Assembly (NCBI GenBank): GCA_963788655.1
Contig: CAWBHS010000059.1
Coordinates: 64,001-128,000 of the forward strand
Direction: 5' to 3'
DNA: 64,000 bases
DNA from: an uncultured Verrucomicrobiae bacterium
GTDB taxonomy: Bacteria > Verrucomicrobiota > Verrucomicrobiia > Limisphaerales > JAFGQR01
The notes under the pieces are model-generated. The model ran no database searches. It saw nothing but the letters and a program-made list of their open reading frames with translations, and had not been told where the DNA came from. A program made the translations under genes and the position numbers. Positions 2,146 through 7,140 of the stretch are shown here, piece after piece (within the stretch, counting starts at the first letter, position 1; every line of letters begins with the position of its first letter).

Positions 2146-3027
2146 TTGGAATGGGTGGGGCGATTTCTGGCCTGGCGTGGGGCAGGGTCGCTGGCCGAAG
2201 TGGAGACGCTGGATATTCGGCGTTACCTGGAGACCCTGGCGGTGGAGCGAAGGGTGAGCGCCAGCACGCAAAACCAAGCCTTCAGCGCGCTGCTCTATTT
2301 TTTCGAACAAGGGTTGCACCGGCCCTTGGGGGACTTGAAAGGGACGCTACGGGCCGCCCCCAACCGGCGGCTGTTTGTGGTGCTCAGCCGGGAGGAAGTC
2401 ACGCGTTTGCTGGCGGCGCTGGCGGGGACTTTTAACCTGATGGCGCGACTGCTCTACGGTACGGGCATGCGACTGATGGAATGCTGCCGGCTGCGCGTCA
2501 AAGACATCGACTTCGAACGCGGGCAAATCGTGATCCACGAGGGCAAGGGAAACAAAGACCGGGTGGTGATGTTGCCACAGAAGCTGGCCAGTCCGCTCGA
2601 ACAACACTTGGCGCGGGTCAAGTTGTTGTTTGATGCGGATCGGCGGGCGGGCCTGCCTGGGGTTTATCTGCCGGGCGCGCTGGAGGCGAAATACCCCAAC
2701 GCGGGCAAGGAATGGATCTGGTACTGGGTGTTTCCCGCCAAAAACCTCAGTGTGGATCCGCGGAGCCAAGTGCGTCGCCGTCATCATGTCCATGAGAATG
2801 GATTGCAAAAGGCCGTTCAGAGTGCGAAACGCCTGGCAGGAATCCCCAAGCGGATTGGCTGTCATACCTTAAGGCATTGTTTTGCCACCCATTTGCTGGA
2901 GGCGGGAGCCGATATCCGAACCGTGCAAGAGTTGCTGGGGCATGAGAGCGTGGAAACCACGATGATTTATTTGCACCTGATGCAGAAACCGGGGTACGGC
3001 GTGCGCAGCCCGTTGGATCAGGAGTAG
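2146..3027 (+). CDS. intI: Integron integrase (copy 1); N-terminal extension from ~1942 cut off by an in-frame TAA at 2134-2136
   Basis: Tyrosine recombinase motifs ([30 protein letters not shown]) plus the IntI-specific insertion ([23 protein letters not shown]...DPRS...RRHH). Confidence 0.93.
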
Positions 3028-3903
3028 CAAGAGCGCGGAATGGTGCGCCGGGCTTACGGAATGGCAACCGTTTCGGTTTATCCGGCGACGATGGGACGGC
3101 CAATTCCGAACGCCAATGGCCACCATTCACTTCCCCGATTAAGCCGAGCGGTTGGCTGCCGCCGACTTCCCCGAATGCCATAAATGCAGTTTCGCCATTA
3201 CCCTCCGCTGGCACCTCAACTTCTGCCGCCGGGGCCGGGGCGAGGTCACTCATGACTCGGCCCGCGACTTCATCGCCTGGGCCCAGGCCCACAAACAGCC
3301 CGAACCCTGGCAACTGGAAAGCTGGCGCGAGGCCATTCGCTGGTTTTTCCGCGCCGCCAAGGCCGCTCAGGATCGAGCCAGTTCGACGGCGTCGGCCCCC
3401 TCACCCCAGCCCTCTCCCCCGGTGGGGGCGAGGGAGCCGGAGGCTTCAGAAGCCACCCCAACTTCGGCGGTGCCCGCCTGGAAAACGGCCTTTCTGACCG
3501 TCCTCCGGCGCCGGCACTATTCGTATCGGACCGAGCAGAGTTACCTGGTTTGGCTGGAACGCTTTGCGCGGTTTTGCCAGACCGAAGACCTGGAACATCG
3601 GGGGACCGAGGACATCAAAGCGTTTCTGGATGCCCTGGCGCTGGACCAGCGATTGAGTGCCAGCAGTCAACGACAGGCGTTGAACGCAGTGGTGTTTTTG
3701 TTGCGCGAGGTCTTCGGCCAGGAACTGGGAGATTTTTCTGATTACCGTCGCTCGCGCTTGCGGCCGCGCGCCCGGACCTGGCTCACCCGCAACGAAATGG
3801 AAAAGCTGCTCGAGCAATTGGAGGGCGAAGGGGATTGGGCCTTGATGACGCGTGTGGCCTTCGGCGGGGGCTTGCGGCTGACGGAGTTGCTGCGCTTGCG
3901 GGT

Positions 3904-4187
3904 TCACCCCGTGAGATAACCGATCATGTCAACCTATTGCTACGTGTATGTTCTGCGTTCAGCCAAGGACGGTCAGTTTTACGTCGGCCTGACCAGAGAC
4001 CTACGAGCGCGGCTTCAAGCGCACAACCACGGACAGGTTCCCTCCACCAAAAGGCGCGCCCCGCTGGAACTGGTGTATTGGGAGGGTTGCCTCAACGAAG
4101 GCGATGCGGCCCAGCGCGAGAAATACCTGAAGAGCGCGTGGGGGAAGCGCTACATCAAGAATCGTTTGAAACAATATCTCACGGGGT
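3904..4187 (+). mobile_element. Minimal inverted-repeat-bounded element carrying a GIY-YIG nuclease gene, inserted in intI
   Basis: ACCCCGTGAGATA (3906-3918) and TATCTCACGGGGT (4175-4187) form a perfect 13-bp inverted repeat. GGGT is repeated directly at 3900-3903 and 4184-4187. Confidence 0.88.
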
Positions 4188-4189
4188 AA
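3926..4189 (+). CDS. Stand-alone GIY-YIG nuclease family protein (87 aa)
   Basis: YVYVL...FYVGLT..L..RL..HN.G...ST....P.ELVY.E......A..RE..LK is the GIY-YIG signature. Confidence 0.92.
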
Positions 4190-4859
4190 AGGACGTGGAT
4201 TTGGAGCAGGAAATCACCACCGTGCGCGCGGGCAAAGGCGACCGGGATCGACTGGTGCCGCTGGCCCATGTAACGGTGGACGCGTTGCGGACGCACTTGG
4301 CGGTCATTCGTCAGCTTTACGAGGCGGACCGCCGCAAACAGGTGGCCGGGGTGTGGTTGCCCGAGAGCTTGGCCCGCAAATATCCCAATGCCGGCAAGGA
4401 ATGGCCGTGGTTCTGGCTCTGGCCCGATGACCATTTGAGCACCGATCCGCGCAGTGGACTGAAGCGGCGGCATCACCTCTCGGACCGGCTGTACCAGATG
4501 CGCATCAAGGAGGCAGCGCAGCAGGCGGGATTGAACAAGCGGGTGACGCCGCACGTGCTGCGGCATTCCTTTGCCTCCCAATTGCTGGACCGGGGCACCG
4601 ACATTCGAACGCTGCAAGAGTTGCTCGGGCACAAGAGCGTGGAAACCACGATGATTTACACCCACCCGATGCGCAAGCCGGGCCTGGGCGTGCGCAGCCC
4701 GCTGGATCAGGAGGAAGAGGGTTGAGGGTTGTTGGTTGAGCGTTGAGGGACCAGCCCGCCGATAAAGTGACAGCTTGAAACTCGACCGAGCGTTCGTTCG
4801 GACCGGACCATGCGCGCTTCGCCAGCGACGGTTCGATGGAAACTTCTGCCTGTGGGGCG

Positions 4860-6636: not shown

Positions 6637-6669
6637 ACTGCAACCCAGTGTTGTGCGGTGCCGTTACAG

Positions 6670-6939
6670 CGTGCTGTTGGCGTCCCGCCGACAGAATCGA
6701 ATGTCGCCGGCACGTCCGAAGGCCCATTTCCGTCGGGAGCGCCTACTTGGGTCCGCTCTGCCGGCAAGATGCCGGCAGCACGCTGGGGCAACGTGCTGTT
6801 GGCGTCCCGCCGGCAGAAACGAAAGCCCGAGGCCCCGGCGAACCGAGGCCGACTTCCGCGGCGCCTGGTGCGCTCGACGTTGCTTGCAATTCGTGGCGTC
6901 CTCTTCCGTTCGGTTTGCCGGCAAGATGCCGGCAACACG
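6670..6939. repeat. BIME-like cluster of four REP palindromes (two inverted doublets)
   Basis: CGTGCTGTTGGCGTCCCGCCGRCAGA at 6670 and 6792; TYTGCCGGCAAGATGCCGGCARCACG at 6757 and 6914. Related single copies near 32852, 47687 and 53960. Confidence 0.85.
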
Positions 6940-6991
6940 TTGGGGCTGGCGCCGAATCGTGGGTGCCCGTTTGGGAAAGGCGGTCAATGAG

Positions 6992-7140
6992 TCGCGCCAG
7001 CGTTTGGAGTGCGCGGAGCTTGCTCCCGCTTTCCTTTGGCGCCGGGGGACCGCAAAGAACCGAGTCGTGCGTCAGAAATTTGTTCCCTTGTTTCCAGCCG
7101 AAAACGCCGGCAAGCCGGGCGCACTCCAAACGCTTCGCGA
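6992..7140. repeat. REP doublet (CGTTTGGAGTGCG family)
   Basis: TCGCGCCAGCGTTTGGAGTGCGCGGAGCTTGCTCCCGCTTT ... CCGGCAAGCCGGGCGCACTCCAAACGCTTCGCGA. The same units recur at 56401-56502. Confidence 0.85.

Follow-up and report, generated by a model that had tools for sequence, protein, structure and literature searches.

A GIY-YIG nuclease gene bounded by terminal inverted repeats interrupts an integron integrase gene and belongs to a dispersed, putatively mobile family

A 64,000-nt stretch of contig CAWBHS010000059.1 from an uncultured Verrucomicrobiae bacterium (hereafter the window) was analysed, and the second of its two integron integrase genes (copy 2) was found to be interrupted by a 284-bp element at 3903–4186 (+ strand), TTCA-CCCCGTGAGATA...TATCTCACGGGG, whose sole open reading frame (ORF) encodes an 87-aa GIY-YIG nuclease. 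[quoted passage not shown] The full-text literature searched, which lies outside most subscription journals, describes neither a GIY-YIG element that has terminal repeats nor a GIY-YIG insertion in an integron integrase, and does not name GIY-YIG as a transposase, transposon, insertion sequence or mobile element; so far as that literature shows, the family is of a kind not described before.

The insert splits copy 2 between the Val and Lys codons of the LRV|KD motif, as a first-pass annotation made from the letters of the window had already proposed; its boundaries were shifted from 3904–4187 to 3903–4186 (TTCA...GGGG), the placement that fits all loci, with the length unchanged. The extent of the element was defined by frame restoration and by 79 arrays taken from 80 related loci plus the window. 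Removal of the TTNA...GGGG unit restores Val-Lys in this window (site A), Gly-Lys at another integrase position (site D) and Leu-Asn in L008 (loci carry L numbers), and the four bases 3' of GGGG are therefore host DNA. Here they form the target tetranucleotide TAAA at 4187–4190 (+; host codons GT|A AAG), the element lying directly 5' of it as in the 45 flank clusters described below. The left terminal inverted repeat occupies 3903–3918 (+; TTCACCCCGTGAGATA) and contains stop codons in two frames (CCG TGA and AGA TAA), so placed that the reading frame of copy 2, on passing the junction, enters the element and ends at the TAA of 3917–3919. The right terminal inverted repeat, at 4175–4186 (+; TATCTCACGGGG), also codes for the invariant C-terminus Y-L-T-G of the nuclease, and its third codon positions are invariant here and variable elsewhere. 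The ORF itself runs from 3926 to 4189 (+), so that its stop codon TAA (4187–4189) is target DNA and not part of the element. A repeat search recovered the perfect 13-bp repeats reported earlier: the 13-mer occurs in the window only at 3906–3918 (+) and 4175–4187 (−), and the extended 16-nt arms 3903–3918 and 4175–4190 (TATCTCACGGGGTAAA) are complementary at 15 of 16 positions (94%). No further copy of the element was found in the window, where a search allowing up to three mismatches gave 11 matches versus 10.8 expected, in agreement with tblastn and blastn.

The 13-bp stem that joins the element end to end is present in both the minimum-energy and the centroid single-strand folds, the ends pairing mutually and not within themselves. 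Beyond this terminal stem no unusual folding was detected in the element (folding-energy z −0.06) and Rfam gave no match to it; on these two grounds a group I intron or ribozyme was rejected. An attC-like cassette or a Xer/dif-like site was rejected by eye: attC core sites read RYYYAAC ... GTTRRRY, and the element ends in TTCACCCC... and ...CACGGGG with repeats at both ends, lacks the core motifs and shares no overlap with its targets.

The 87-aa protein matched the Pfam GIY-YIG domain (PF01541) with an E value of 7e-16 and 58.7 bits (cut-off 22.6), and residues Y6, Y8, G21, R29, H33 and E65 were invariant among 30 sequences. Its AlphaFold2 model (predicted local distance difference test score 92) shows the expected order of strands and helices, profile searches matched 1ywl and 1zg2, and the top Foldseek neighbours were the UPF0213 protein 1zg2 and Slx1 (6seh, 7cq2 and 6sei; E 5e-4 to 7e-3, root-mean-square deviation 2.2–2.6), with plant HIGLE also near; UvrC (E 0.33) and I-TevI (E 0.43) were far weaker matches than SLX1/UPF0213. 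The protein is a minimal stand-alone domain of the GIY-YIG superfamily, in its SLX1/UPF0213 branch, and that family is large in bacteria (7477 cluster representatives at E ≤ 1e-3). Members of the superfamily have a domain of some 80–100 aa that bears the GIY and YIG motifs, an Arg at its centre and a Glu towards the C-terminus. Neither Pfam nor NCBIfam gave a further domain in the 87-aa protein, the TIGR01453 group I intron endonuclease model scoring 17 bits against a cut-off of 56, and ORF and profile searches found no known IS enzyme or Y1_Tnp domain in the element, which upholds the earlier statement that the nuclease is its only gene. According to passages of the survey by Dunin-Horkawicz et al. 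(2006, PMC1564403), stand-alone prokaryotic Slx1-like domains are the minimal form of the fold and a GIY-YIG domain has recently inserted into a restriction-subunit gene; a repeat-bounded element is absent from these passages.

A word-indexed search returned 2095 protein homologues at E ≤ 1e-5, the best 120 of which were 80–100% identical and nearly all 87 aa long; many lay on contigs of ~1 kb, as expected of assembly-breaking repeats, and in 7 of the 120 best protein clusters the sequence ran on into another left end. When public genomes were scanned, with one genome per species, 154 stretches matched, 106 of them encoding a relative, from which the best 80 were kept as loci. These belong mostly to Verrucomicrobiota, and also to Acidobacteriota, Bacteroidota, Ignavibacteria, Planctomycetota, one member of the Desulfobacterales and two Saccharibacteria, with cross-phylum relatives 66–90% identical; a plasmid collection held only distant housekeeping relatives (35–42% identity). 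The layout is near-universal: TTNA-CCCCGTGAGATA stands a few bases 5' of the start codon, the last four codons are TATCTCACGGGG (Y-L-T-G), and T[A/G]AA follows. Homologues thus share the inverted repeats, as expected of the tiny mobile element that the first-pass annotation had suggested, and the identical ends that flank the ORF in 64 full-length copies (80 loci plus window) confirm that the element is neither a chance arrangement nor a misassembly. Conservation in the repeat columns is 95% or more across 61 non-redundant full-length copies, and this holds for the third codon positions of Y-L-T-G as well, while outside the repeats variation is codon-periodic (two in three), the pattern of protein-coding DNA. 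An ORF of 84–90 aa is kept in 54 of 70 copies, about 16 being broken, and selection on it is purifying (ratio of nonsynonymous to synonymous variation, pN/pS, about 0.15–0.3).

The complementarity of the two ends is maintained as their sequence changes. In an alignment of 29 elements, 93.5% of the 460 repeat cells were paired and 6 of 16 pairs had changed on both sides, a level of pairing reached by none of 500 shuffles (slid controls paired at 25–52%). Divergent protein lineages (L058; L047/L039; L046/L053/L051/L031; L075; L076/L077) bear different, still complementary repeats, such as CCCTGTTAAATA / TATTTAACAGGG in L075 and another pair in L076/L077, where both repeats overlap coding sequence. 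Fourteen distinct gene-less copies of 32–96 nt with the family ends and target were also found, in keeping with the earlier expectation that such copies should exist; the minis of L038 and L068 are homologous yet occupy different sites in different genomes, and L032 has two near-identical minis. The repeat pairs in the 80 loci bracket only the nuclease ORF or short non-coding DNA, and no other gene.

The 79 arrays fell into 45 flank clusters whose only common feature is R^T[A/G]AA, with a purine before the element in 37 of 45 and, after it, T in 42, A or G in 45, A in 43 and A in 40. The first-pass annotation had looked for unrelated flanks around a GGGT-AAA-like target; the flanks are indeed unrelated, and the shared target proved to be R^T[A/G]AA, without GGGT. 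The GGGT at both junctions of the window, which had been taken for a target duplication, was rejected as one: the right GGGG is the conserved element end (GGGG-T), the left GGG belongs to host Arg and Val codons (CGG-GT), and other sites differ on the left, so that the resemblance is peculiar to this site. Removal of the unit leaves nothing doubled, and there is no target duplication. A duplication of TNA or TTNAA, or base-pairing between TTNA and TNAA, was rejected as well, the N positions neither matching nor complementing each other and being unpaired in 18 of 29 elements, as was an IS608-like boundary of the form 'target TTCA / element CCCC...TRAA', under which sites A, D and C would have their conserved residues (Lys, Lys and Leu-Asn) replaced. 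In the metagenomic proteins P0086 and P0062 the host codon is GTC or GCA (giving TCAA or CAAA) instead of GTA or GTG; there is then no stop and the ORF reads into KDVD in another frame, indicating that the target (TRAA) supplies the stop codon.

An integrase match lies within 200 nt of the nuclease ORF at 40 of the 80 loci, co-oriented with it in all 40, and Pfam adds L018 and L063 to the integrase-associated loci. At least eight integrase positions are used, all of them conserved motifs (RRF|I.FH, QA|LN, LRV|KD, DG|KG, position ~180, GYDI|RT, LLGH|K and KDV|.TTM). The other sites are gene boundaries, where the element is co-oriented with the host gene: at the stop codons of 2-hydroxyacid dehydrogenase and FtsY-type genes, whose frames then end at the CCG TGA of the left repeat, and directly 5' of the ATG of metF, a phosphorylase gene and sulfotransferase genes. 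No promoter-like site was found near the element, terminator-like sites occur at chance level, and in most copies the start codon follows the left repeat by 1–9 nt; the nuclease is therefore likely to be expressed via host read-through and translational coupling. Two elements occupy a single integrase gene in L047 (2986–3265 and 3441–3819) and again in L051 (2416–2711 and 2967–3265), the two copies of L051 being sisters in the tree. The integrase bias could stem from local hopping, from gene conversion that links paralogues, from integrases being passed on horizontally, or from the loss of integrases being selected for or tolerated; active integrases are costly to their hosts. Among the metagenomic nuclease homologues, P0262 has a C-terminal extension that reads like an integrase C-terminus (...TTMTMIYTH...SPLD) and that of P0244 is possibly integrase-like as well, so that these two may be further integrase-embedded copies outside the 80 loci.

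Several comparisons bear on movement. L019 and L038, from one genome, have only a 289-nt unit in common and are sisters in the tree, and tandem arrays occur in L003/L004, L001, L023/L025 and L068. L066 and L067, at the same integrase site in one metagenome-assembled genome (MAG), carry elements identical at 222 of 223 nt between flanks that are 57–74% identical after 17 identical nt. In a tree of 73 ORFs, a short alignment in which most branches are weak, a supported clade of 10 elements mixes integrase sites A, C and B, and the groups at housekeeping sites are single clades. Elements are often much more similar than the integrase sequences that flank them (0.93 versus 0.67/0.83 for L011/L013, a pair that is partly mosaic, and 0.84 versus 0.59 for L002/L005).

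Taken together, these data suggest a mechanism in which the 87-aa nuclease would be the mobilising enzyme. It would read the stem formed by the two repeats, probably on single-stranded DNA or, in minis, as a cruciform; such recognition is suggested by the structure-specific class to which SLX1 belongs and by the absence of a DNA-binding domain. Cutting at the foot of the stem (R^TTNA and GGGG^TRAA) would release or copy the element, leaving an intact R-TRAA site, and host repair or ligation would then complete its entry into a further R^TRAA. Copies could also spread among integrase paralogues, at conserved motifs, by a second route that is guided by homology, a break being followed by gene conversion of a homing-like kind. 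The co-variation of protein lineage and repeat sequence favours the nuclease as the enzyme over the nuclease as cargo.

A number of points weigh against this reading. Movement and the role of the nuclease are deduced here from sequence comparison. GIY-YIG proteins are hydrolytic nucleases for which no strand-transfer chemistry is known, so that movement would call for factors from the host. The loci were sampled as the best 80 among 106 matches to a pair of peptide patterns drawn from close relatives and are biased towards that subfamily. Covariation of the repeats would be expected from base-pairing of the ends or equally from one protein reading both ends, and is no proof of a stem. In L032 and L033 (Planctomycetota) and L062 (Opitutales) the ORF lacks its own repeats, has its C-terminus in other codons and is directly followed by a mini, an arrangement reminiscent of a nuclease gene beside its repeats. 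Some junctions are off by 1 nt (+1 at site B in L001, L011, L013, L021 and L036; −1 at site C in L002, L005, L018, L035 and L042; L039 and L072 are also off), which could reflect later decay or imprecise insertion. The window holds 357 R^TRAA sites and one element, so the target rule fails to explain the integrase bias. At the ends of metF, 2-hydroxyacid dehydrogenase, FtsY-type and sulfotransferase genes divergence of the element roughly equals that of its flanks; with the pN/pS given above, this marks the housekeeping-site copies as old, vertically inherited and constrained, and points to long residence with little movement. Finally, at the DNA level the same species yielded no empty site. 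The empty-site alleles that the first-pass annotation had hoped for exist as uninterrupted integrase relatives, at the protein level and in other organisms.

A first alternative, which we consider unlikely, is that the element is purely a homing-endonuclease gene whose product cuts integrase alleles that are uninterrupted, homologous repair then copying the gene into them, with its repeats serving expression by ending the upstream frame and coupling translation. It would account for insertions in the most conserved integrase motifs, for near-identical elements at one site in diverged paralogues of a single MAG (L066/L067), for elements more similar than their integrase flanks (L011/L013, L002/L005), for filled alleles followed by TCAA or CAAA, where position follows homology and not TRAA, and for stop codons in the left repeat 1–9 nt before the start codon. 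Homing, however, requires flank homology, and some 45 unrelated flank clusters share just R^TRAA; it does not predict gene-less minis with family ends at unrelated sites or compensatory changes that keep the ends complementary, the SLX1-type fold lacks the DNA-binding domain that gives homing endonucleases long recognition sites, and no co-conversion tract longer than 17 nt was seen in L066/L067. If instead a transposase encoded elsewhere reads the repeats and the GIY-YIG gene is a passenger, the element would be a non-autonomous MITE with cargo. This we judge quite improbable, even though gene-less copies move without the ORF, ORF and repeats are separable in L032, L033 and L062, and strand transfer is not a chemistry known of GIY-YIG. 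The ORF has its last four codons in the right repeat itself and both repeats overlap coding sequence in L076/L077, the repeat sequence changes with the protein lineage, the repeats of the 80 loci bracket nothing but the nuclease ORF or short non-coding DNA, selection on that ORF is purifying, and a fixed tetranucleotide without target duplication does not fit MITEs of the DDE type.

We give still less credence to a domesticated system of the kind formed by repetitive extragenic palindromic (REP) sequences and REP-associated tyrosine transposases (RAYTs), in which a vertically inherited nuclease and its hairpins would serve the host, for example in processing mRNA or DNA structures, and the integrase copies would be by-products. 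The co-divergence of element and flank at housekeeping gene ends with intact ORFs, the hairpin-forming minis that adjoin repeat-less nuclease genes in L032, L033 and L062, and the co-oriented, non-disruptive placement at gene boundaries are consistent with it; several copies per genome at different sites, repeated destruction of integrase genes, broken ORFs in about 16 of 70 copies, cross-phylum relatives at 66–90% identity and the many copies on short, assembly-breaking contigs are not. Least credible of all, to a degree that makes it barely tenable, is the view that the insert behaves like an intron or is read through, with the integrase remaining functional, or that it forms a reversible switch, although both integrase halves are intact around the insert and its removal restores the frame. 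A 296-aa ORF (3835–4725), in frame with the C-terminal half of the integrase, does extend across the entire insert; only 3 of 64 related elements have that frame open, its openness in this window is therefore due to chance, and translation through the insert was rejected. There is also no Rfam family, folding energy is unremarkable outside the terminal stem, conservation follows a codon period and no structure, and some junctions are out of frame. The excisable off-switch for cassette shuffling proposed by the first-pass annotation has no support: several related insertions lie 1 nt off the reading frame, elements at the ends of housekeeping genes have been in place since their host species diverged, and copy 2 is damaged a second time, by an in-frame TAA at 3140–3142 (codon 9) where relatives such as P0121 have Trp (MKAIHFPDWAERLAAA), which counts as a lesion unless translation restarts at TTG 3152. 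The tiny mobile element of that annotation stands; its target duplication does not, and its switch is unsupported.

A bolder form of the mobilisation reading, which we hold with rather less than even confidence, would make the SLX1-like 87-residue nuclease a transposase of a new chemical class and the ~285-bp unit the smallest autonomous DNA transposon known. Such a transposon would read a stem and not a sequence, be cut at the foot of that stem and so excise without a scar, insert 5' of T[A/G]AA, borrow the stop codon of its target, ride on the transcript and translation of its host, and prey by preference on integron integrases in at least five phyla, silencing cassette shuffling. Prokaryotic DNA is known to be moved by DDE, DEDD, HUH, serine and tyrosine enzymes, which a new class would join if the nuclease is the mobilising enzyme, and part of the uncharacterised UPF0213/SLX1-like family would acquire its first biological role. 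The smallest known IS elements measure ~700 bp, so that a new lower limit for the size of an autonomous element would also be set. The economy of the unit is unusual, one repeat being the last four codons of the ORF, the other ending the host frame shortly ahead of the nuclease start codon and the stop being taken from the target. Repeated knock-outs of integron integrases in soil Verrucomicrobiota, Acidobacteriota, Bacteroidota and others bear on the freezing of cassette arrays, and a small nuclease that is guided by structure and cuts at a defined position could be of use as a tool.

Both integron integrase genes are on one strand, arranged head to tail (2146–4725). Copy 1 (2146–3027, +) is uninterrupted and scores 391 bits against TIGR02249 (family cut-off 265); at the position equivalent to the insertion it reads CGC GTC AAA GAC, and since GTC AAA gives no T[A/G]AA, it has no target there. 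Copy 2 has its true start at ATG 3116 (MATIHFPD). Its N-terminal part (3116–3902, +) matches TIGR02249 over 3152–3903 (profile positions 8–139, 108 bits), and its C-terminal part (4187–4725, +; KDVDLEQ... to the stop codon), in which the frame is intact, matches over 4189–4722 (positions 141–314 of 315, 222 bits). The element inactivates copy 2. In the uninterrupted relatives P0121–P0125 (423–451 aa), labelled integron integrase by their sources, the protein continues straight over the insertion junction. Copy 2 and these relatives carry an N-terminal extension of ~130 aa (ITLRWYLSFCRR...) that is absent from copy 1. Immediately upstream of copy 1, several small ORFs opposite to intI occupy the minus strand at 66–1846, two of them ankyrin-like by eye; this is the expected place for an integron cassette array, and attC sites were looked for there by a generic repeat scan only. 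That scan of 1–2200 gave nothing decisive on an attI/attC array in the 2.1 kb available upstream of copy 1.

Further along the window, the intergenic region 6650–7140 holds a cluster of imperfect direct and inverted repeats of 29–54 nt, including TCTGCCGGCAAGATGCCGGCAGCACGCTG, which looks like a REP-like palindromic repeat array unrelated to the ends of the GIY-YIG element. Among the related loci, a 1.78-kb block comprising an integrase, a full element and an abutting mini occurs twice in one contig (L003 2370–4153 and L004 2368–4139; 97.9% identity), in surroundings that are unrelated; here the gene for the interrupted integrase has itself undergone duplication or movement. In L070, an ORF 3' of the element (3249–3731) has a sub-threshold match to an IS200-like Y1 transposase (E 1e-4, 22.8 bits, cut-off 23).

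Set beside known systems, the element has what generally defines an IS in its terminal repeats and its several copies at unrelated sites, and departs from that definition in having neither a transposase of known class nor a target duplication. Its gene-less copies of 32–96 nt resemble MITEs in bearing the terminal inverted repeats and target of the full element, whereas classical MITEs derive from IS elements of the DDE type and make target duplications. Free-standing GIY-YIG homing endonuclease genes (phage T4 Seg proteins, I-TevI; PMC1564403) share with it the GIY-YIG catalytic domain and a selfish invasion of conserved stretches in homologous genes. Copying induced by a break, from one integrase paralogue to another, is likely here too; homing enzymes, however, are encoded within group I introns or free-standing between genes, have linkers and a C-terminal DNA-binding domain that reads a long target, and have neither terminal repeats nor minis, and the present nuclease is a bare 87-aa domain with no C-terminal DNA-binding domain, no group I intron by Rfam, terminal repeats at its borders and a fold closer to SLX1 than to I-TevI. 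With SLX1/UPF0213 proteins (YazA, YhbQ, EF2693, BH0048) it shares fold and motifs. Slx1 is, by the titles of its PDB entries, a nuclease of branched and 5'-flap DNA, and SLX1 depends on its partner SLX4; the housekeeping UPF0213 genes, 35–42% identical to the element nuclease, are not reported with such repeats. REP sequences, their hairpin-forming pairs (REPINs) and RAYTs offer a likeness in the dispersed hairpin repeat pairs at gene ends, in a small nuclease gene flanked by its presumed substrate repeats and in long vertical inheritance. The RAYT, however, is an HUH enzyme, usually single-copy and not carried by REPINs, whereas here the enzyme is GIY-YIG, lies mostly inside the repeat pair and has copies that land inside genes. 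Elements of the IS200/IS605 group use an HUH Y1 transposase and have a separate subterminal hairpin at each end, in contrast to a GIY-YIG nuclease and ends that are complementary to each other, and the present element is less than half their size. It is like them in being very small, in lying beside a fixed tetranucleotide without target duplication, in having ends that form a DNA structure, in its strict orientation and in the plausibility of precise excision.

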